This document shows, piece by piece, positions 932 through 62,020 of a DNA stretch of 64,000 nucleotides. Source of the stretch: Candidatus Nealsonbacteria bacterium (lineage in GTDB: Bacteria; Patescibacteriota; Minisyncoccia; Minisyncoccales; JAGMDC01); the NCBI GenBank assembly GCA_030612885.1, contig JAUWMZ010000003.1:69578-133577 (forward strand). Direction: 5' to 3'. The position numbers were made by a program, and so were the translations under genes. The notes beneath the pieces are model-generated. The model saw only the letters and a list, made by a program, of their open reading frames with translations, was not told the DNA's origin and ran no database searches. How positions within the stretch are numbered: the stretch's first letter is position 1; the number at the start of each line of letters is the position of its first letter.

Positions 932-1018
932 ATCCCGCACCTTTTGGAACATACCCGACGACTTACAAAGAAATAATCATTGGAAGGAGTTTAATACCCC
1001 TCCCAAAAGGTGCGGGAT
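932..1018. repeat. Palindromic element with 16-bp perfect terminal inverted repeats ATCCCGCACCTTTTGG / CCAAAAGGTGCGGGAT (family PE-2, copy 1)
   Basis: Arms lie at 932-947 and 1003-1018 with a 55-nt spacer. Related copies are at 44413-44480, 45528-45559 and 46401-46469. Confidence 0.8.
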
Positions 1019-2959: not shown

Positions 2960-3033
2960 TGCCGGGTCGTCTAACGGTAGGACAACAGCCCTTGGAGCTG
3001 TCTATTTAGGTCCGAATCCTAACCCGGCAGCCA
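2960..3033 (+). tRNA. tRNA-Gln (anticodon UUG) with encoded CCA
   Basis: TGCCGGG TC GTCT AACGGTA GGAC A ACAGC CCTTGGA GCTGT CTAT TTAGG TCCGAAT CCTAA CCCGGCA G CCA. U1-A72 and G73 fit Gln identity. Positions 33 (C) and 55 (C) are non-canonical, hence the reduced confidence. Confidence 0.65.
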
Positions 3034-3152
3034 CGAAAAGTGGCTTCGCCACCCACGAAAAGGCCCGTGGCCCTCGTGGTTTTACGGGCTCGTGGCAAGC
3101 CGCTTTGAAGTGAGTCCCGAGATGAGCGAAGCGAATTTTTCGGGACTAATCT
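3034..3152. repeat. Cluster of GC-rich mini-hairpins immediately 3' of tRNA-Gln
   Basis: Contains GCCACgaaaaGTGGC, GTGGCttcGCCAC, CCACGaaaaggccCGTGG and GTCCCGA(gatgaGCGAAGCgaatttt)TCGGGAC at 3114-3146. The region is sharply more G+C-rich than its flanks and ends exactly where homology to the NUDIX gene begins. Confidence 0.75.
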
Positions 3153-5031: not shown

Positions 5032-6585
5032 TTATTTTAAATAAAGATAATCTCTGTAATTTCCTAAATATTCCTTTAGGTTTTTGTTTTTAATCTCCCA
5101 AATTTTATTGCATGCTTCATTGAGAATATAACGATCATGAGAAACCAAAAGAATTGTGCCCTTATATTCTTTAAGCATATTAGTTACAACTTCTTTGCTT
5201 GGAAGGTCTAAATGATTTGTTGGCTCGTCTAATATAAGAAAATTTGATTTTTGCAGTACCAGTTCAGCCAAAGCCACTTTTGCTCGTTCTCCACCGCTTA
5301 ACTGATCGATTTTTTTAGCGGTTTCATCTTGTGTAAGCAAAAGACAACCCAAAACACTTCTAATTTTTTCTTCATTAGAAATTGTTTTAGACGCAACTTC
5401 TTCCAATATGCTTTTTTGGGGGTCTAATTCCTCGTGCGCTTGCGCGTAATAACCAATTTTCACCCCTTGTCCTATTCTTGCTTCCCTTGTAGTAAGTTGA
5501 TGTTTGTTTATGATAGTTTTTAGCAAAGTTGATTTTCCCGCTCCGTTATCGCCTATAATGCCGATTTTATCTCCCCAGTTTATCTCTATTCTGCCTTCTA
5601 TCTCAAATAAGGGCGATTGCTTGTCGCCAATTATTAAATCATTAATTTCTAAAACTTTTGTGCAAACTTTCTCTATATCATCAAAGGCGATTTTGATATT
5701 ACTGCCTGTTTTCGGATTTTCTAATCGTTCAACTTTTTTTAATTGCTTAATCCTGCCTTGAACTTGCCCGGCTATTGCCGCTTTATATCTGAAACGGTCA
5801 ATAAATTCCTGCTGCTTCTTGAAATGCTTTTGCTGATTTTTGTAATTTTTTTCTTGTATTTCAACGCATTTTTGTTTTTCTTTTATGTATTCAGAATAAT
5901 AGCAATAATATTTTTGCAATCCTTGTTTTGTCAGTTCAAAGGTCTTGTCGCACATTTTGTCCAAAAATAATCTATCGTGAGACACGCATATTATTGTTTT
6001 CTTCCAATTCAATAAAAACTGCTCCAGCCATTCTATTGTCCTTAAATCAAGATGATTTGTTGGTTCGTCTAAAATCAATAAATTTGGCTTAGATACTAAA
6101 ATTTTAGCCAGTGCTAGCTTTGTTCTTTCCCCGCCGCTTAATGTTTTAATTTTCCTTTGTAAAAATTGCTCCGGGAAACCGAAACTCTCTAAAAGATTTT
6201 TTACTAATCCTTCACGACGGCTGCTATTTAATTTTAATCTTTCCATATTGACCGAATATATTTCTTCTAAAAGCGTGCTTTGAAGAGATTTCCAATGAGT
6301 TTCCTGCGGCAGATATCCTATTTTGAGATTTTTGTTTTTGCTGATATATCCTTCGTCTGTTTCTTCTATTCCTATAATTATTTTCAAAAGCGCGCTTTTG
6401 CCTATTCCATTCGCTCCCACAATAGCGATTCTATCATTGGAATTTATTGTTAAATCAACACCTGAAAACAACTCCTCTGCTCCATAGGATTTTGAAATAT
6501 TGCGAGTAACCAATAAAGGGTTTTTAATTTTCTCTGATTGAATCTCGCAAAAAAATCTTGGAATTTTTATCTCATTTTTGTTCAT
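5032..6585 (-). CDS. ABC-F family ATPase (two ABC domains, no TM domain)
   Basis: GANGIGKS / LSGGERTKLALA / LLILDEPTNHLD and GDNGAGKS / LSGGERAKVALA / FLILDEPTNHLD, separated by a charged linker. Confidence 0.9.
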   Translation of the reverse strand: MNKNEIKIPRFFCEIQSEKIKNPLLVTRNISKSYGAEELFSGVDLTINSNDRIAIVGANGIGKSALLKIIIGIEETDEGYISKNKNLKIGYLPQETHWKSLQSTLLEEIYSVNMERLKLNSSRREGLVKNLLESFGFPEQFLQRKIKTLSGGERTKLALAKILVSKPNLLILDEPTNHLDLRTIEWLEQFLLNWKKTIICVSHDRLFLDKMCDKTFELTKQGLQKYYCYYSEYIKEKQKCVEIQEKNYKNQQKHFKKQQEFIDRFRYKAAIAGQVQGRIKQLKKVERLENPKTGSNIKIAFDDIEKVCTKVLEINDLIIGDKQSPLFEIEGRIEINWGDKIGIIGDNGAGKSTLLKTIINKHQLTTREARIGQGVKIGYYAQAHEELDPQKSILEEVASKTISNEEKIRSVLGCLLLTQDETAKKIDQLSGGERAKVALAELVLQKSNFLILDEPTNHLDLPSKEVVTNMLKEYKGTILLVSHDRYILNEACNKIWEIKNKNLKEYLGNYRDYLYLK

Positions 6586-32009: not shown

Positions 32010-32040
32010 GGGCGAAGTCCGTCCTCGCCCAATTTGGGCG
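32010..32040. repeat. REP-like GC hairpin, copy A (GGGCGAAG-TCCGT-CCTCGCCC plus AATTTGGGCG tail)
   Basis: The stem extends to AAATTGGGCGAAG / CCTCGCCCAATTT. Same family as 44588, 60086, 60672, 60909 and 61993. Confidence 0.85.
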
Positions 32041-41742: not shown

Positions 41743-42791
41743 TGAAACTAAAAATCTTTTTAATATCACTTTTGTTGAGTCTGCCTTTTTGGTGGGGGAT
41801 AAATGTTTTAGCAGGAAATTTAGAAAATGTTTTTTTCTTGGAATTTACTAAAAATAATCCTGAACTTTATATTGCCCAGGTATCTCAATATCCTCCTCAA
41901 GACATAGAAAGAGAAAATGAGAAATTACCAGAACAAGAACCAAAAGAAGAATTATCAGAAAACGAGGAATTATTGAAACAAGAATCAGAAAATTCAGAGA
42001 TTAGCGCTCAATCAATTATCTCTGTTTTAACTGACTCTCAAGGCATGGAAGAAATCATTTTTGAAAAAGATGTTTCTAAAAAACTACCCATTGCCAGTTT
42101 AACTAAATTAATGACTGCTTTAATAGTTTTGGAAACCTATGATATGGACCAAGAGGTAATAATAAGCAAAAAAGCAATGGAACAGCCGGAAGAAAAAGGA
42201 ATGTTAAGCCCGGGAGAAAATCTTTCAGTAGAGAATCTTTTACATATTATGCTCATTGAATCAAGCAATGACGCTGCCTATGCTTTAGCTGAAGGAAGCA
42301 TTGTGGGCCAAGAAAAATATATAGGAGAAGAAAAATTTGTGGAAATGATGAATCTCAAAGCAAAGGATTTATGCCTTGAAAATACTAATTTTTTTAATCC
42401 CACTGGCATAGACGAAGACAAACCGGAAAATTATTCAAAACACTATTCCACCAGTCAAGATTTGGTAAAGCTGTCTAAATATATATTTAACAATTATCCC
42501 CGAATTTTTGAAATAAGCAGAAAACAATCTTATGAAGTTTTAAATTCCGATGGTTCTATCCATCATTTTATCGCGTCTAATACTAATAAGCTTTTAGACC
42601 TTCCTACCAAAGAATGGTGGGGGATAGAGATAATTGGCTGTAAAACCGGCTGGACTCCGGAAGCTCAGGGCTGTCTTCTTTTAGTGATGGAAAAAGAAAA
42701 TCAAGATGGTTATTTAATTAATGTAATCTTAGGTTCAGAAGACAGGTTTGAAGAAATGAAAAAATTAATATATCAAACAGTTTCTCTATGA
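41742..42791 (+). CDS. D-alanyl-D-alanine carboxypeptidase (S11, PBP5/6-like)
   Basis: SxxK ASLTK, SxN ESSND, KTG CKTGWT. N-terminal signal/TM segment. Confidence 0.88.
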   Translation: MKLKIFLISLLLSLPFWWGINVLAGNLENVFFLEFTKNNPELYIAQVSQYPPQDIERENEKLPEQEPKEELSENEELLKQESENSEISAQSIISVLTDSQGMEEIIFEKDVSKKLPIASLTKLMTALIVLETYDMDQEVIISKKAMEQPEEKGMLSPGENLSVENLLHIMLIESSNDAAYALAEGSIVGQEKYIGEEKFVEMMNLKAKDLCLENTNFFNPTGIDEDKPENYSKHYSTSQDLVKLSKYIFNNYPRIFEISRKQSYEVLNSDGSIHHFIASNTNKLLDLPTKEWWGIEIIGCKTGWTPEAQGCLLLVMEKENQDGYLINVILGSEDRFEEMKKLIYQTVSL

Positions 42792-43849
42792 CTCTTTTTA
42801 CTTTCAGTGTAGTTAAAATTTTTCTTATCTCCTCGTTCACAGCAATTATTGCCATTTTTTTGGCTCCTTTTTTAATTAAATTTCTATACAAAATCAAATT
42901 TTGGAAAAAAGAAGCCAGAACTAAAACTATCACCGGAGATAAGGCAGAAGTTTTTTATTCCCTGCATAAGGATAGGGAAGTGAGCGTACCCAGGGGCGGC
43001 GGTTTGATAATTTGGTTCTCGGTTTTAATCGTAATTCTTATCTTTTATTTAGTGAGCAAATTCTCTGACATCTGGTGGCTGAAATCCCTCAATTTTTTAT
43101 CACGAGGGGAAACCTGGCTGCCTCTGTTTACTTTAATAACCGCTTCTTTAGTTGGCTTAACAGATGACATTTTACAGGTTTTTGGAAAAGGGAAGTATAT
43201 TGCCGGCGGTCTGGCTTTTAAAAAACGAATGCTGATGGTGATTTTAATTGGAACAATCGGCGCTTGGTGGTTCTATGGCAAGCTGGGCTGGGATTCTATG
43301 CATATTCCTTTAGTGGGCGATTTTTCTTTAGGAATTTGGTATGTTCTTTTGTTTATTATCACTATGTTGGCTTGCTGGAGCAGCGGAGTGGTTGACGGAA
43401 TAGACGGTTTGGCTGGCGGGGTTTTTGCTTCCATTTTTGGCGCTTTTGCCATTATTGCTTTTTCACAAGGAAGAGTAGATTTAGCTGCTTTTTGTATTGC
43501 TATTACCGGAACATTGTTTGCATTTTTATGGTTTAATATCCCGCCAGCCAAATTCTATATGGGAGAAACAGGAATATTGGGCTTAACCACTACTTTAACT
43601 GTTGTCGCTTTTCTGACTGACTCTTTAATTGTCCTGCCGATAATTGGAGGTCTTTTGGTAATTGAATCCGGTTCTGTTATTTTACAGCTTTTGTCCAAAA
43701 AATTTCGAAAAAAGAAAATCTGGCTATGCACTCCAATTCATCATCACTTTGAAGCAAAAGGCTGGCCGCCTTATCGAGTGACAATGCGTTTTTGGATTAT
43801 CGGAGTTGTTTTAGCAATCATCGGCACTGCCATCCGATTACTGGGCTAA
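42788..43849 (+). CDS. mraY: Phospho-N-acetylmuramoyl-pentapeptide transferase
   Basis: GLTDDILQV, VVDGIDGLAGG, NIPPAKFYMGETG, PIHHHFE. Confidence 0.92.
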   Translation: MTLFTFSVVKIFLISSFTAIIAIFLAPFLIKFLYKIKFWKKEARTKTITGDKAEVFYSLHKDREVSVPRGGGLIIWFSVLIVILIFYLVSKFSDIWWLKSLNFLSRGETWLPLFTLITASLVGLTDDILQVFGKGKYIAGGLAFKKRMLMVILIGTIGAWWFYGKLGWDSMHIPLVGDFSLGIWYVLLFIITMLACWSSGVVDGIDGLAGGVFASIFGAFAIIAFSQGRVDLAAFCIAITGTLFAFLWFNIPPAKFYMGETGILGLTTTLTVVAFLTDSLIVLPIIGGLLVIESGSVILQLLSKKFRKKKIWLCTPIHHHFEAKGWPPYRVTMRFWIIGVVLAIIGTAIRLLG

Positions 43850-43871
43850 TCATCCTATCAAAGGGACGTAG

Positions 43872-43898
43872 ATGTGTAGATGTCAGACATCTACACAT
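43872..43898. repeat. Palindrome ATGTGTAGATG-tcaga-CATCTACACAT
   Basis: 11-bp perfect stem immediately downstream of mraY. Confidence 0.6.
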
Positions 43899-43979
43899 AA
43901 CTATTGATTAATTCTCCAAGATTTGCTAAAAAGAAAACAACGATGAGAAAATCTCATCAACTTAAAAAAAGAATAGGGG

Positions 43980-44237
43980 GTGATTATTGTGAAATATGAA
44001 GTACTTTTAGAAGAACAAGGGAGCAAGAAAACATTACAAATTGAAGCTAAAGACGATATCGATTTATTTAAAGTTTTGGTAGACCAAACAAATCCATTTT
44101 TTCCACCAGTGATAAAAGCTTGGTGTGTTATTGACAAGAAGAAAAGAGAAATTCCACCAGAATCAATTGAATGGTTACATCAAGTATTCGATAATGCCCA
44201 TTACGAGAGTCAATATGCAGCTATAGGAAGTATTTAA
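43980..44237 (+). CDS. Hypothetical protein (85 aa) inserted in the mur/dcw cluster
   Basis: GTG start preceded by GGGGG. A hairpin plus T-run follows at 44283-44316. No motif recognised. Confidence 0.35.
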   Translation: MIIVKYEVLLEEQGSKKTLQIEAKDDIDLFKVLVDQTNPFFPPVIKAWCVIDKKKREIPPESIEWLHQVFDNAHYESQYAAIGSI

Positions 44238-44282
44238 TAATCGGGTAGCATTTGCGCGAGCAAAAAATCAAATAGAAATCAA

Positions 44283-44316
44283 GCTGGGTTGGTTCAATCC
44301 AGCCATTTTTTTTTTG
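44283..44316 (+). terminator. Terminator-like hairpin plus long T-run
   Basis: GCTGG-gttggttcaat-CCAGC followed by CATTTTTTTTTTG. Confidence 0.55.
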
Positions 44317-44336
44317 ATTTCAGGCGAATTTTAGAA

Positions 44337-44383
44337 TATAGCAAATCAGAGATTTGATATATTAAACTAAAGTTTGTTATAAT
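44337..44383 (+). promoter_or_regulatory. Stereotyped promoter module, copy 2
   Basis: TATAGCAAATCAGAGATTTGATATATTAAACTAAAGTTTGTTATAAT. The TATAAT ends 8 nt before the ATG at 44392. Confidence 0.65.
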
Positions 44384-44391
44384 AAAAAAAC

Positions 44392-46104
44392 ATGAAAAAA
44401 GTTGATAGTTTACCCCGCACCTTTTCTGGACAGAAGCCGAAGGCTTCAAAAATGCAAAAAAGTGCAGAAAAGGTGCGGGGTTTAAGAAAAAAATATCCGA
44501 AATTTGTTTACGAAAGTTATTTTTACGAAATCTTTAAAAATGATTTAAAGATTTCTTTTGATTTTAAGATATACACAAAAGGAGATAGGGCGAGGACGGA
44601 CTTCGCCCAATCTCACATTATTCATTTTCAACCAAAAATTGTAATAAAAAACATTGATAAAAAACGATTAGCAGAAATAGGCCCGCCTGCATCGGCTACG
44701 CCTGCTCGCAGCGATGCAGCAACTTCGGGCAAGCCGAAGGCGTTGCGGGCAGGGGACAGGGTATTAGATAATCTTGTTTTTCATTTGGGTTTAATGGAAA
44801 TTCCCAGTTATTGGAAAACGACTTGTTCGCCAGAAATTGAAATCAAAGCCGGATATTTAGATAAACAGCAAATAAAATGGTGGAAAGATTTTATCCTTAA
44901 TGGAATGGGTCAATTCTTTTATGAAAATAAAATTGATTTTACTAAATCAAATTTTCTAAAAATTACTTCAGTAGCGGAGAACAGTTCTCCGCTAAAATTG
45001 GCGGAGAACAGTTCTCCGCAATCTTTAACAAAGAATTTTTTAATCCCAATGGGCGAGGGCAAGGATTCAATTGTTACTTTAGAGTTGCTCAAAAAATTTG
45101 ACAAGATTAGCGTAGGCAAAAAAAGTCAAATAGATTGCTTTGTTGTTAATCCCACGAAAGAGCATTTTAAAATTTTAAAGATTGCTAAAATTAAAAATCC
45201 AATCATTGCCCAAAGAAAGATAGATCCTGTTTTATTAGAATTAAACCGAAAAGGATCCTACCCTGCCTGCCCTGAGCGAAGTCGAAGGGAGCTCGCCGAA
45301 GGGTTTTTGAATGGACACACGCCAATTACAGCTGTAATTTCTAATTTAGCAGTTTTTTGTGCGGTTTTATTTGGGTTTAAGAGTGTAGTTATGTCCTGTG
45401 AAAGAAGCTCAAATGAAGGCAATGTGAGGTATTTAAAAAAAACAATAAACCATCAGTGGTCAAAAAGTTTTGAATTTGAAAACAAATACAGAAATTATGT
45501 TAAAAAATATTTAGTTAAAGACATAAACCCCGCACCTTTTATGCACAGAAGGTGCGTGGTAAACTATTTTAGTTTTCTAAGGCCTTTGTATGAAATCCAG
45601 ATTGCTAAAATTTTTTCCAAATTTTCAGAATATTTTCCTGTATTTTTAAGCTGTAATGAAGCAAGAAAAACAAATTCCTGGACTAAAAAACCAACAGGCA
45701 AATGGTGCGGGAGATGCTCAAAATGCCTGTTTATTTGGACAATTTTATATCCTTTTGTAAAAGAAAAAGAATTAATAAAAATCTTTGGCAAAAATCTTTT
45801 TAAAGATAAAAAACTAATTCCAATAATGAAAGAACTAATAGGAAATGATAAATATAAGCCATTTGAATGCGTTGGCACTAAAAAAGAAACTCTGATTGCT
45901 TTTTACTTGTCATACAAAATTTACATAGGTGACACCTATGTAAATTTACCGCTTTTATTGAGGTATTTTGAAAAAAAAGTTTTGCCAAAATACTCAAAAT
46001 TAAAATTAGAGCAGGACTCAAAAAAGATATTAAGCTCATGGAATAAGCAAAATAACTTACCAAAAGAATTTGACAAAGCTTTAAGAAAGTTATATTTTAA
46101 ATAA
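44392..46104 (+). CDS. Uncharacterised dcw-cluster protein with a PP-loop-like GEGKDS motif and C-terminal CGRCSKC (possible MurL-type epimerase), carrying six in-frame GC-rich palindromic insertions
   Basis: Continuous 570-aa frame located between mraY and murD. The MurL assignment rests only on position next to murD and vague recall of the family. Insertions are listed as separate repeat features. Confidence 0.6.
   Translation: MKKVDSLPRTFSGQKPKASKMQKSAEKVRGLRKKYPKFVYESYFYEIFKNDLKISFDFKIYTKGDRARTDFAQSHIIHFQPKIVIKNIDKKRLAEIGPPASATPARSDAATSGKPKALRAGDRVLDNLVFHLGLMEIPSYWKTTCSPEIEIKAGYLDKQQIKWWKDFILNGMGQFFYENKIDFTKSNFLKITSVAENSSPLKLAENSSPQSLTKNFLIPMGEGKDSIVTLELLKKFDKISVGKKSQIDCFVVNPTKEHFKILKIAKIKNPIIAQRKIDPVLLELNRKGSYPACPERSRRELAEGFLNGHTPITAVISNLAVFCAVLFGFKSVVMSCERSSNEGNVRYLKKTINHQWSKSFEFENKYRNYVKKYLVKDINPAPFMHRRCVVNYFSFLRPLYEIQIAKIFSKFSEYFPVFLSCNEARKTNSWTKKPTGKWCGRCSKCLFIWTILYPFVKEKELIKIFGKNLFKDKKLIPIMKELIGNDKYKPFECVGTKKETLIAFYLSYKIYIGDTYVNLPLLLRYFEKKVLPKYSKLKLEQDSKKILSSWNKQNNLPKEFDKALRKLYFK
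44413..44480. repeat. PE-2 family palindromic element, copy 2, in frame inside the CDS
   Basis: CCCCGCACCTTTTCTG ... CAGAAAAGGTGCGGGG (16-bp perfect arms). It encodes LPRTFSGQKPKASKMQKSAEKVRGL. Confidence 0.85.
44588..44608. repeat. REP-like GC hairpin, copy B, in frame inside the CDS
   Basis: GGGCGAGG-ACGGA-CTTCGCCC is 21 nt (7 codons) and encodes (D)RARTDFAQ. Confidence 0.85.
44681..44750. repeat. 70-nt GC-rich two-hairpin element closed by an outer stem, in frame inside the CDS
   Basis: GCCCGC [CTGCATCG..17 nt..CGATGCAG] caa [CTTCGGgcaagCCGAAG] gcgtt GCGGGC. It encodes PPASATPARSDAATSGKPKALRAG. Confidence 0.8.
44974..45019. repeat. Tandem pair of the 19-nt palindrome GCGGAGAACAGTTCTCCGC (27-nt period), in frame inside the CDS
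   Basis: Copies lie at 44974-44992 and 45001-45019 and encode AENSSPLKL-AENSSPQSL. Confidence 0.85.
45253..45303. repeat. GC-rich insertion with CCCT(GAGCGAAGTCGA)AGGG hairpin and CGAAGGG direct repeat, in frame inside the CDS
   Basis: Encodes GSYPACPERSRRELAEG. The loop is related to the GAGCGAAGCGA loops at 3124-3134 and 8648-8658. Confidence 0.75.
45528..45559. repeat. PE-2 family short hairpin, copy 3, in frame inside the CDS
   Basis: CCCCGCACCTT-ttatgcacag-AAGGTGCGTGG encodes NPAPFMHRRCVV. Confidence 0.8.
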
Positions 46105-46118
46105 AAGAGGTGATAGAA

Positions 46119-46352
46119 ATGGGAGAAGAAGTAAAGATAGCAACAAAAGACCGAATAAAAAGGCAAATACTGCAAACTCTGAATTTGTTAGAAATATATG
46201 GAGCTAATAATATTGCTGAAGTTATAGAATGGGCCCACAGGGAAGACTTATTAAATCTTGAACTGAGAGTTGGTCTAATTGGCGAATTTCCAATGCTTAC
46301 AGACAAAGGCAGGGAGTGGTTAGAAAAGCAAAAAATAAAAGATGGGAACTAA
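46119..46352 (+). CDS. Small hypothetical protein (about 77 aa), possibly wHTH-like
   Basis: ATG at 46119 is preceded by AGAGGTGA. KRQILQTLNLLEIYGANNIAEVIEWA resembles a winged-helix core. It sits between the MurL-like ORF and murD. Confidence 0.4.
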   Translation: MGEEVKIATKDRIKRQILQTLNLLEIYGANNIAEVIEWAHREDLLNLELRVGLIGEFPMLTDKGREWLEKQKIKDGN

Positions 46353-46400
46353 ATAGTTCCTCTTTTTTTTGACCTTTGGGTGATTTTGGGGTATGATAAA

Positions 46401-46469
46401 TCCAGCACCTTTTTGATAGGATATTAAACCCCACCAAGGAAAGGTAGATTATTCTAAAAAGGTGCTGGA
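46401..46469. repeat. PE-2 family palindromic element, copy 4 (variant arms TCCAGCACCTTTTT / AAAAAGGTGCTGGA)
   Basis: It lies directly upstream of murD. The listed GTG start at 46462 falls inside its right arm. Confidence 0.8.
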
Positions 46470-46476
46470 TAAAAAA

Positions 46477-47766
46477 ATGAAGTTAGAAGAATTAAAAAAC
46501 AAAAAAATACTTATTTTAGGTTTAGGGAAAGAGGGAATGGATAACTTCAAATTTTTGAGAAGGCTATTTCCGAATAAAGTTTTGGGATTGGCTGACAGAA
46601 AAGAATTTTCAAAACTAATAAAAAAAGATAAGAAAATTAGATTACATTTGGGAAAAAATTACCTCAAAGCCATAAAAAAATACGATGTAATAATAAAATC
46701 TCCTGGCATTCCTATTCTTTTGCCAGAGGTTGAAAGGGCTTTAAAACAAGGAAAGATAACTTCGCAGACAAAAATATTTTTTGAAAATTGTCCTGGAACA
46801 ATTATTGGTATCACTGGCACAAAAGGGAAAAGCACTACTGCTGCCTTAATTTACAAAATACTAAAAGACGCTAAATTAAAAACTCATTTAATTGGAAATA
46901 TTGGAAAACCAGTTTTATCTTATTTGGGCAACCCATTCGACAAACTCAGGGCGAGAGCAAAAGAAAATGATATTTTTGTCTATGAATTATCCTGCCATCA
47001 ATTATACAATCTTAAAAAACCTGCCGGCAGGCAGGCAGGAGTCCCTTATATTGCTGTTCTCTTAAATATCTATCCTGAACATCTTGATTATTACAAAAGT
47101 TTTAAAGAATATATAAAAGCAAAAGCAAATATCACTCGCTGGCAAACCAAAAATGATTATTTAATTTTTAATTCCCAGGATAAAATTGTCAGAGAAATTG
47201 CTAAAAACACAAAGGCAAAAAAAATTCCGATTAAAGGAAAATTTAATCTCTTAAATGTATCTGCTGCCAAAGAAGTAGGAAAAATATTCAAGATTTCTTC
47301 TAAAGAAATTGCCAAGTCAATTAAAAGCTTTAAACCTTTGCCGCACCGATTAGAGTTTGTTGGTATCTATAAAGAAATCAAATTTTACAATGATTCTTTG
47401 TCTACTATTCCAGAAACCACTATTGCTGCCTTAGACGCTTTAGGGAAAGATGTTCAGACATTAATTTTGGGCGGCTATGATAGGGGATTGGATTTTAAAA
47501 AACTGGGCAAAAGAATAGCGAGAAGTAAAGTAAAAACATTGATTTTATTTCCAGAAACCGGTAAAAAAATTTGGATTTCTGTTACTTCTAAAAAACGATT
47601 TAAAGCTTTTTTTGTGAATAATATGAAAGAAGCAATAAAATTTGCCTATCAGCACACTGAAAAAGGAAAAATTTGTTTATTATCGCCGGCTTCACCAAGT
47701 TTTGGTATTTTTAAAGATTATAAGGAAAGAGGAAATTTATTTAAAAAGTACATTTCAGGAATTTGA
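46477..47766 (+). CDS. murD: UDP-N-acetylmuramoyl-L-alanine--D-glutamate ligase (MurD family)
   Basis: ATG at 46477 ([20 protein letters not shown]). [10 protein letters not shown] and Mur ligase domains. Two short GC-rich in-frame patches lie at 46926-46957 and 47010-47028. Confidence 0.88.
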
Positions 47767-60085: not shown

Positions 60086-60116
60086 GGGCGAAGACGGACT
60101 TCGCCCAAATTTGGGC
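60086..60116. repeat. REP-like GC hairpin, copy C (GGGCGAAG-ACGGA-CTTCGCCC plus AAATTTGGGC)
   Basis: 3' flank of the RAYT-like gene. Its loop is in the opposite orientation to copy E on the 5' flank. Confidence 0.9.
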
Positions 60117-60155: not shown

Positions 60156-60899
60156 TTACTCTAAAACAAAATTGGAAAATTTTTTTATTTCTCCTTTGTA
60201 TTTTACCCAATTTTCAATAAAATCTTTACATCCCTGTTCTCCTCCCATTGCTTTTAGCATGGAGTTCCTTTCGGTCACTGAAGGAAAATTCTTTTTTCCG
60301 AGATAATCAGAATAACTAGACCATTTATAATTTTTTAAAAACTCAATTACTTTTTCCATATTCTTTATACCTATTTCTTTCCATTTTGGCTCTATAAGAG
60401 ATATAGGATTAGTATGGATATAGACAAATACAATTTTTAATTGTCTATCGGTTTTGATATGAATTGTCTTAAATCGTCCTTGAAAAAGGTAGCCCTTCCG
60501 ATTATATTTTTTATTGAAATAATTAGCATATCCTGTACCGAACTTTCTCATAAATTTAGTGATTCCTTCATCTTTAGTTTGTTTAATTAATAAATGGATA
60601 TGATTCGGCATAAAACAAAAAGTAAAGATTTCTACTAATAAATCTCTTTTGTCAGGAATATTAACTGAAATAGGCGAAGACGGACTTCGCCCGGCTTGTT
60701 CTCTGGATAATTTTTTTATGGTTTGAATCTCACGACGTCTTTTACCAATATTTACTGAATTAATATTATTAAATTCATAAAGAGAAAAAATGCCTCTATA
60801 GTAATCGTTAATGTCTTTGAAAATTAAGGAATCGCCAACTCCTCTGAGCACAATATGATAGATTTCGTTATTTATTAATTCTTGTTGTCTAATGGGCAT
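60156..60899 (-). mobile_element. IS200/IS605-family Y1 HUH transposase homologue of the REP-associated (RAYT-like) type
   Basis: HUH motif FMPNHIHLLIK, GYLFQGRFK, catalytic-Tyr motif VYIHTNPIS, KWSSYSDYLG. There is no TnpB partner, and it is flanked by inverted REP-like hairpins. Confidence 0.8.
60672..60692. repeat. REP-like GC hairpin, copy D, in frame inside the RAYT-like gene
   Basis: AGGCGAAG-ACGGA-CTTCGCCC encodes (E)QAGRSPSSP on the minus strand. Confidence 0.85.
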
Positions 60900-60908
60900 A
60901 ATTTAGCC

Positions 60909-60952
60909 GGGCGAAGTCCGTCTTCGCCTGATTTTATCTTCGCCTGATTTTA
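60909..60952. repeat. REP-like GC hairpin, copy E, followed by a 16-bp perfect tandem duplication of its 3' half
   Basis: GGGCGAAG-TCCGT-CTTCGCC, then TCTTCGCCTGATTTTA twice (60921-60936 and 60937-60952). Confidence 0.9.
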
Positions 60953-61992: not shown

Positions 61993-62010
61993 GGGCGAAG
62001 TCCGTCTTCG
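61993..62010. repeat. REP-like GC hairpin, copy F (3' truncated)
   Basis: GGGCGAAG-TCCGT-CTTCG then diverges. It is intergenic. Confidence 0.75.
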
Positions 62011-62020
62011 TATATTTATT

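Follow-up and report, generated by a model that had tools for sequence, protein, structure and literature searches.

A murL homologue of Candidatus Nealsonbacteria with six in-frame GC-rich insertions that probably derive from mobile repeats

Introduction

How can a single bacterial gene collect several GC-rich segments, many of them palindromic, and still encode what looks like a working enzyme? This question is raised by a 64,000-nucleotide stretch of DNA from a Candidatus Nealsonbacteria bacterium (GenBank assembly GCA_030612885.1, contig JAUWMZ010000003.1, positions 69,578 to 133,577 of the forward strand), which was analysed as a whole and is hereafter called the window. The GC content of the window is 32.6%. 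Between mraY (42788-43849) and murD (46462-47766) lies an open reading frame (ORF) of 570 amino acids (aa), a homologue of murL, that carries six GC-rich patches, here numbered ins1 to ins6 in order. A preliminary description of the sequence had likened these patches to the in-frame palindromic elements of Rickettsia, and had proposed that either selection tolerates only in-frame insertions or the gene is an insertion hotspot.

The evidence presented below favours, with a probability of roughly 0.7, the explanation that mobile repeats insert into a functional murL gene, and that selection keeps only those copies that are in frame and located in tolerant loops. Coordinates and identifying features of all elements are collected in Table 1.

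Results

Six GC-rich patches in an open frame

The patches add up to 315 nucleotides (nt) with a GC content of 58.4%, whereas the ORF outside them (1398 nt) has 27.1%. Each insertion adds a multiple of three nt, and none brings with it an in-frame stop codon or a frameshift. If insertion length were free, six multiples of three would arise by chance with a probability of 0.0014. Of the 36 possible reading frames through the inserts, 26 contain no stop codon, compared with 41% for random window segments of equal lengths. An insert with an added length divisible by three is thus likely to leave the frame open.

The ORF and its patches, the 16-bp arms of ins1, the core repeat of ins2 at 44588-44608, the 27-nt period of ins4, the arms of ins6, and the intact reading frame were all found as first described. 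Two other claims require revision. The elements had been called six different ones, but the terminal repeat CCCCGCACCTTTT is common to ins1 and ins6, which form one family, so that murL contains five repeat families. Each patch had also been called a palindrome or hairpin. When RNA folding of each patch was compared with that of 200 shuffles, significant z-scores were obtained for ins1 (-7.35), ins2 (-7.55), ins4 (-11.0) and ins6 (-4.76), whereas the hairpin of ins3 is marginal (-1.58) and ins5 is a GC-rich repeat with no hairpin (-0.04).

A contig from an independent Logan assembly (run SRR12623520) is 100% identical to window positions 43669-46120, and therefore the patches are real and not assembly artefacts. 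Furthermore, Rfam searches of the murL-murD region at E <= 1, and of 12 loci that carry the repeat found in ins5 (family F5), returned only a chance microRNA match and tRNAs. Thus, the elements are not known RNA families, ribozymes or riboswitches.

A conserved homologue of MurL

The ORF had been assigned tentatively to MurL, and the homology behind this assignment has stood. The NCBIfam model for MurL (NF041275) matches residues 126-565 with E = 1.6e-67 and 228 bits, which lies under the equivalog cut-off of 700 bits. Precomputed Pfam data list MurL_N and MurL_epimerase_C matches for the identical protein as well as for all close homologues; a search with a local copy of Pfam gave no match for the ORF protein. 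The protein is therefore a MurL homologue and a candidate for an exact functional equivalent. It retains 174 of the 177 columns that are conserved at >= 90%, which places it above the family median. The closest homologues, most of them 465-490 aa long, carry the names Candidatus Parcubacteria, Minisyncoccales or Nealsonbacteria. The wider family numbers 4916 proteins at E <= 1e-10 among the scored candidates, many of them from Parcubacteria; a 2021 review limits the MurD2/MurL pathway to a few genera (PMC8788868).

MurL from Xanthomonas is known to convert ATP to AMP and to catalyse a one-way L-to-D epimerisation (PMC8788868). The window protein has a GxGKDS motif, and a relationship to PP-loop ATPases had been suggested for it. 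When the AlphaFold model was compared with solved structures by Foldseek, the top matches were indeed PP-loop ATPases (TilS/MesJ and NAD+ synthetase), at E of about 0.02, with nothing at E <= 0.001, and a sequence search of solved structures found no homologue. The proposed relationship is thus weakly supported by the predicted structure.

Gene context agrees with the assignment. murD lies 360 nt downstream of murL, and related loci show the same mraY-murL-murD order, an arrangement expected of a partner of a MurD-type ligase. A 909-aa homologue (P0016) has both MurL and Mur ligase domains, and murL ORFs of 759-775 aa are present in three loci (L058, L059 and L067). These long proteins suggest MurL-MurD fusions, which, if true, would support a functional link between MurL and MurD. 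A promoter-like site with 11 of 12 matches is located upstream of murL, no sense-strand intrinsic terminator-like site was found within the gene, and such sites flank the unit formed by murL and an 80-aa ORF (ORF80, 46110-46352) that precedes murD. ORF80 has no family match and is apparently conserved in related locus L081, where its region reads on from murL into the long C-terminus of the homologue P0002.

Gaps in homologues and positions in the predicted fold

Insertions were evaluated with protein alignments of 21 and 118 homologues and with codon alignments of seven related loci. Homologues have clean gaps at ins1, ins3, ins5 and ins6, as had been predicted from the sequence, and the site of ins2 is a hypervariable loop. 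The prediction failed for ins4, which is shared with relatives. Among 119 proteins, ins1 and ins6 are private to the window protein, and ins3 and ins5 are confined to it and to P0002 of locus L081.

Rare insertions of >= 5 aa number 160 in the same 119 proteins, and their content of G, A, P, R and S is raised about two-fold. No such insertion is present in 30 of the proteins and a single one in 49, and the maximum of six is reached by the window protein, P0002 and P0044. Moreover, all six positions in the window protein are recurrent insertion sites of the family. About 35 proteins have an insertion at residues 61-65 (the ins2 site) and about 21 at residue 378 (the ins6 site), with at least 20 homologues carrying insertions other than ins6 at the latter.

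The location of the insertions in surface loops, also anticipated, was judged from one AlphaFold model of the protein with its insertions (predicted local distance difference test score, pLDDT, 82.9; predicted template modelling score 0.86). Segments with pLDDT < 50 comprise residues 1-13 (ins1), 100-121 (ins3), 202-209 (ins4) and 289-307 (ins5). The ins2 and ins6 peptides are modelled as coil between secondary-structure elements, with block pLDDT values of 67 and 62, and the coil of ins6 lies between a helix and strand 391-394. All six insertions are therefore predicted to lie in low-confidence coil of an otherwise confident model.

A REP family and its candidate transposase

The second insertion is a repetitive extragenic palindromic (REP) element, assigned to family F2. 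Its core, GGGCGAAG-ACGGA-CTTCGCCC, is present in six copies in the 64-kb window, compared with none expected from shuffles. On the evidence of this window, the element is an imperfect palindrome of short length with multiple genomic copies. A terminal GTAG/CGTC tag also serves as a criterion for REPs (PMC3733652). The aligned flanks of the six copies share no terminal tetranucleotide, and CGTC is confined to one strand of the loop. The site of ins2 is a variable beta-hairpin loop (residues about 63-76), where relatives have different hairpins.

About 15 kb downstream of ins2, two REP copies with mutually inverted loops bracket a gene for a transposase of the Y1 (HUH) type that resembles REP-associated tyrosine transposases (RAYTs). 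The protein, 247 aa in length, matches Pfam Y1_Tnp with E = 1.4e-10 and 41.8 bits (cut-off 23 bits). Its best NCBIfam match is REP_Tyr_transpos, with E = 1.1e-10 and 41.5 bits, below the 80-bit cut-off. The HxH and Y-IH-N residues, the latter from the catalytic tyrosine region, are invariant in an alignment with 15 homologues, and a conserved C-terminal extension lies outside the Y1_Tnp match. At least 2845 proteins belong to this family at E <= 1e-5. The transposase gene itself contains an in-frame REP, which falls in a loop of hypervariable sequence across homologues and is lacking from P0195, P0205 and P0219.

A MITE-like family

Both ins1 and ins6 belong to family F1, which has two further, intergenic copies in the window. 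All four elements are flanked by TTTA/TAAA direct repeats and thus combine terminal repeats with target duplication, as do the miniature transposable elements with inverted repeats known as MITEs. The shared terminal repeat has nine matches in the window, compared with 0.96 expected, and the four copies are mutually unrelated in their interiors. In ins1, the direct repeats (TTTA at 44409-44412 and 44481-44484) enclose an element with perfect 16-bp arms and a folding energy of -41.3 kcal/mol, and the net insertion of 72 nt (24 codons) directly follows the conserved N-terminus MKKVD. The net insertion of ins6 is 36 nt (12 codons). Both additions are multiples of three, whereas the intergenic copies at 933 and 46401 add 89 and 73 nt, respectively, including the duplication, and neither length is a multiple of three. 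These intergenic copies also fold (z = -6.75 and -6.41), and the second is placed between a promoter-like site of murD and the murD start. The additional F1 copies with their TTTA duplications, the transposase gene flanked by the REP seen in murL, and two insertions in murD had all been missed by the preliminary description.

Peptides of the form LPRT...VRG in other homologues were considered as further F1 copies and rejected. The corresponding DNA of L207 and L208 forms different hairpins that have only CCCCG...CGGGG ends in common and no TTTA duplication. In L081 (about 5400-5520) and L001, a different hairpin element, CCCCGTTAGAAAT..., is located upstream of murD where the window (46369-46473) has F1, and the MurL protein P0090 carries a member of this different family in frame (NPVRNPEFLNGV).

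Repeats that recur at identical junctions

At the junction occupied by ins3 (24 codons) in the window, L081 has a 36-nt version of the same repeat, and the window has 36 nt more inside it. An ins5 element likewise occurs in L081 at the identical junction. In a neighbour-joining tree built on 460 core columns, P0002 of L081 groups with P0007 of L073 at 100% bootstrap, and the window protein groups with P0003, P0005 and P0008. The L081 DNA that flanks ins3 and ins5 also resembles L073, unlike that of the window.

At least 120 metagenome contigs, with GC of 0.32-0.70, contain the 19-nt core of ins5, CCTGAGCGAAGTCGAAGGG, as do 53 IMG/VR viral contigs (loci L084-L203 and L209-L261), and the core is often preceded by GGAGCCTGC. 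A near-copy of ins5 that reaches past these 19 nt is present in the unrelated contig L142. Such a distribution suggests a short repeat that is dispersed very widely. A closing stem around it was only slightly more common in 119 metagenome instances than in shuffles, and this proposal was dropped. Elsewhere in the window, tRNA-Gln (2960-3033) is immediately followed by a 120-nt cluster of GC-rich hairpins (window 2960-3150; -56 kcal/mol, z = -5.8), and the loop GATGAGCGAAGCGAA of one of these hairpins resembles the F5 core. A hammerhead-like reading of F5 and of the loops at 3113 was rejected on inspection of the misfitting core, and Rfam agrees.

A hairpin in the inter-domain linker

The palindrome pair of ins4 is located in the linker between the two domains of MurL. 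Relatives L082, L008, L081 and L073 share the same GC-rich palindrome at the same place, and therefore ins4 is apparently old or recurrent and not private to the window. Among 53 murL loci, 14 have a linker hairpin with z <= -3, almost all of them close relatives of the window. Exact-pattern counts of the elements in 83 related loci yielded almost nothing; a mismatch-tolerant scan found family F4 confined to murL linkers and F2 confined to L001.

The same linker holds other structures elsewhere. An unrelated perfect hairpin with a 19-bp stem (GAAGGAAGCCCGCCTTCCTC) occupies it in L205 (667-759), and L003 likewise has an unrelated perfect hairpin. In L001 (4409-4464) and L206 (817-915) the linker contains an inverted REP doublet resembling a REPIN. 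Comparison of these sequences indicates rapid hairpin turnover at the site.

Density of patches in murL and its neighbours

Stable GC-rich patches, defined by GC >= 50% and a folding energy <= -14 kcal/mol, number 17 in the window. Twelve are intragenic, and five of these lie in murL, which makes up 3% of the coding DNA of the window (binomial P = 1.7e-5). Locally, murL is therefore an insertion hotspot. Such patches are also scarcer in coding DNA than expected, with 12 of 17 in genes compared with 88.7% coding DNA (P = 0.035), and this depletion fits selection against most genic insertions. Of selection and a hotspot, proposed initially as alternatives, both apply. Selection would let through only in-frame copies in loops, and the same loops are struck by other elements in other lineages.

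When alignments were used to count GC-rich insertions specific to the window, none were found in aspS, mraY, ftsW or murG, two in murD, and four in murL, a count that omits ins1 because of its ambiguous N-terminal position and ins4 because it is present in relatives. A universal role of murL as a hotspot was rejected. Across 44 other AT-rich loci, murL has 0.27 patches per kb and its neighbours 0.33, and because murL is not richer than its neighbours there, the load is specific to the lineage of the window.

Both murD insertions are in frame, and the family match of the window MurD is split into two stretches. An element near-identical to the second, encoding PACRQAG, is found at the same site in L007. 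A long perfect hairpin also lies in frame in the murD of L081, a gene whose call was split in two by a scaffolding gap, visible as a run of N with duplicated flanks (about 6150-6250).

Table 1. Repeat elements, host gene and candidate transposase gene in the window
Feature	Coordinates	Strand	Identifying evidence
murL homologue	44392..46104	+	NCBIfam NF041275; Pfam MurL_N and MurL_epimerase_C; conserved columns; AlphaFold
ins1, long F1 form, 68 nt	44413..44480	+	Terminal inverted repeats CCCCGCACCTTTTCTG
ins2, REP, family F2	44582..44614	+	Core GGGCGAGGACGGACTTCGCCC at 44588-44608, extended by GAGAT/ATCTC stem
ins3, 72 nt, 69% GC	44680..44751	+	Closed by GCCCGC/GCGGGC
ins4, two copies of palindrome GCGGAGAACAGTTCTCCGC	44974..45019	+	19-nt unit, 27-nt period, long hairpin
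ins5, F5 repeat, 48-nt insertion (16 codons)	45253..45303	+	Core CCTGAGCGAAGTCGAAGGG at 45271-45289
ins6, short F1 form, 31 nt	45529..45559	+	Direct repeat TAAAC (45524-45528, 45560-45564)
F1 copy, intergenic	933..1017		Terminal repeats TCCCGCACCTTTTGG, TTTA flanks
F1 copy upstream of murD	46401..46469		Terminal repeats TCCAGCACCTTTTT, TAAA flanks
In-frame 24-nt murD insertion, GNPFDKLR	46927..46950	+	Reverse-complement relative of F5 unit
In-frame 21-nt murD insertion, AGRQAGV	47023..47043	+	CCTGCCGGCAGGCAGG
REP copy, intergenic	32010..32030		Core scan
REP copy	60086..60106		50 nt past 3' end of transposase gene
REP copy, in frame in transposase gene	60672..60692		Peptide QAGRSPSSP
REP copy	60909..60929		10 nt upstream of transposase start; loop inverted relative to copy at 60086
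Degenerate REP copy, intergenic	61993..62013		3' flank AATCTCAC common with ins2
RAYT-like Y1 (HUH) transposase gene	60156..60899	-	Pfam Y1_Tnp; NCBIfam REP_Tyr_transpos

Discussion

Weighing the explanations

Under the preferred explanation, a working murL gene in an AT-rich, gene-dense genome of the Parcubacteria type would have acquired mobile repeats that are GC-rich and short and belong to five families. Means of movement are recognisable for at least two of these, with REPs presumably moved by the RAYT-like single-strand DNA transposase and F1 elements inserting with duplication of TTTA. Insertions presumably land widely, and with about 89% of the genome coding, most of them would be eliminated by purifying selection. 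The survivors would be those with a length that is a multiple of three, no stop codon, and a loop or linker position that the fold tolerates. The inserted peptides would then be translated as disordered surface decorations that are neutral and have no role for the enzyme.

Several observations weigh against this explanation. No second copy of ins3, ins4 or ins5 is present in the 64-kb window, and thus the mobility of these three elements within this genome is putative. Also, the window contains no autonomous partner or parent insertion sequence of F1. The extreme patch load is specific to one lineage, and murL and murD are hit with aspS and murG spared, an uneven pattern for which the explanation does not account. 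The recurrence of ins3 and ins5 presents another type of difficulty, in that L073 and the nearest relatives of the window lack both elements. Between the window and L081, ins5 is identical at 45 of 51 nt, the 5' and 3' portions of ins3 that they have in common (about 33 nt, as compared by eye) are identical, and the gene core has 77.8% identity. This pattern points to re-insertion at the same site, repeated precise loss, or constraint on the element, and is not predicted by plain neutral hitch-hiking. Finally, over five lineages the stem of the ins4 type has 94% pairing, and both partners have changed in 6 of its 20 pairs.

These last observations are the starting point for a rival explanation, that some hairpins, chiefly ins4, are retained because their nucleic-acid structure is useful as an inter-domain translational pause, an mRNA stability or processing site, or a protein-binding DNA site. 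A very stable linker hairpin is found in nearly every murL of the subclade to which the window belongs, compensatory changes maintain the ins4 stem, the palindrome is conserved as DNA despite a different reading frame in L008 and L081, and ins3 and ins5 are better conserved than the flanking DNA. However, the covariation score for ins4 (0.27, compared with 0.15 in shuffles and reached by 3 of 500 shuffles) is based on only five sequences. Sister lineages have unrelated hairpins in the linker, as in L205 compared with L008, or the REP doublet of L001 and L206; the hairpin is decaying in L082 and half deleted in L002 and L204; and the 57-nt linkers of more distant murL genes are unstructured (median z = -0.5). 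It is also well established that template switching, by correcting one palindrome arm from the other, can maintain perfect palindromes in the absence of selection. Turnover and such self-correction explain the linker hairpin at least as well as function does, and a useful structure is judged unlikely, though it is the most credible of the rivals.

The remaining alternatives fare much worse. That the GC-rich segments are ancestral in MurL and were lost by most homologues might be suggested by the ins4-like sequence common to several relatives and by the occupation of the ins2 site by some sequence in many homologues. This idea is largely refuted by the homologues that have no rare insertion or a single one, by the restriction of ins1 and ins6, with their target duplications, to the window and of ins3 and ins5 to the window and P0002, by a GC content of 58% within a 27% GC gene, and by members of the same families in intergenic DNA. 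Decay of murL into a pseudogene, or misassembly, would account for an unusually high repeat load, since repeats can mislead assemblers. Such an origin is highly improbable given a frame that stays open over 1713 nt in a 27% GC background, the retention of nearly all highly conserved residues, a confident AlphaFold core, the identical Logan contig, and the presence of ins3 and ins5 at the same junctions in L081, which comes from a different sample. Removal of the insertions from the mRNA, or their bypass by the ribosome, is brought to mind by a superficial resemblance to the GC-rich bypass elements of Magnusiomyces mitochondria and the bypassed gap of phage T4 gene 60, where structured inserts interrupt coding sequence. 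Neither process would need six inserts that are all stop-free multiples of three, the intergenic F1 copies are not multiples of three, and Rfam has no match in the region, which leaves untranslated insertions with very little credibility. Overall, insertion of mobile repeats followed by selection for in-frame copies in tolerant loops accounts best for the observations.

Implications

Minimal genomes are common in the candidate phyla radiation, and the proteins encoded there often carry unexplained lineage-specific insertions, for which this locus offers a concrete source in short GC-rich mobile repeats that selection filters into loops. It also indicates that a system of the REP/RAYT type, with thousands of transposase relatives, exists in Parcubacteria. 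A practical lesson is that GC-rich patches in AT-rich metagenome assemblies should be masked before homology or structure work, because unmasked patches make ORFs longer, break up domain matches, and may lower model scores. In addition, the recurrence of ins3 and ins5 and the turnover of linker hairpins provide a natural test of fold tolerance and of target choice by the elements.

A bolder proposal, tentative and on balance doubtful, is that REP and MITE hairpins might live largely inside the coding genes of ultra-small, about 90%-coding Parcubacteria genomes, re-entering and replacing one another in a small number of tolerant loops, with some, for instance the hairpin of the murL linker, kept as nucleic-acid structures through compensatory change. 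If this were true, coding loops would be a regular niche for such elements and would continually supply proteins of the candidate phyla radiation with lineage-specific peptide insertions.

Relation to known systems

Rickettsia palindromic elements, and REPs within genes of several phyla, sometimes two per ORF, are already known (PMC3733652, PMC10969869). Like the elements described here, Rickettsia palindromic elements are palindromic mobile repeats that lie in frame in functional genes of a small, AT-rich, gene-dense genome, where several families coexist and add extra surface peptides (PMC3733652, PMC10969869); several families are likewise found in the window. The initial comparison is upheld by the gaps in homologues and by insertion in frame into a gene that is functional as judged from conservation only. 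The likeness is one of behaviour and not of family. Rickettsia palindromic elements measure roughly 100-150 bp and those of the window 21-72 nt. The window elements are also strongly GC-rich relative to their host, which belongs to the Parcubacteria of the candidate phyla radiation, and six insertions of five families are concentrated in one 1.7-kb gene.

REP-RAYT systems (REPtrons and REPINs) have in common with the window a repeated 21-nt imperfect palindrome and a Y1 HUH gene between inverted copies, and REPs inside genes, as in murL, have been reported (PMC3733652). The differences lie in the window transposase, which at 247 aa has a C-terminal extension and scores under the NCBIfam cut-off, in the lack of an evident GTAG/CGTC end tag, and in the REP held in frame by the transposase gene itself. 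F1 resembles bacterial MITEs in having terminal inverted repeats, here of 13-16 nt, in duplicating a 4-bp target (TTTA), in being present in several copies, and in lacking coding capacity. MITEs are usually 70-300 bp long, whereas F1 elements span 31-85 nt, have unrelated interiors, and lack a parent insertion sequence in the window.

Genes of AT-rich, compact organelle genomes also acquire GC-rich or palindromic inserts, as exemplified by the GC clusters and bypass elements of yeast mitochondria and the coding palindromes of Nematomorpha mitochondria. In contrast to the window inserts, all of which are in frame, yeast bypass elements disrupt the reading frame and ribosomes skip over them. The organelle cases are not known to have a transposase comparable to that of the window. 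Within the literature library searched, nothing on the candidate phyla radiation, Patescibacteria or Parcubacteria described in-frame intragenic palindromic repeats. What is new at this locus is the lineage, the density of six insertions from five families in one gene, and the occurrence of the transposase associated with the REP in the same window.

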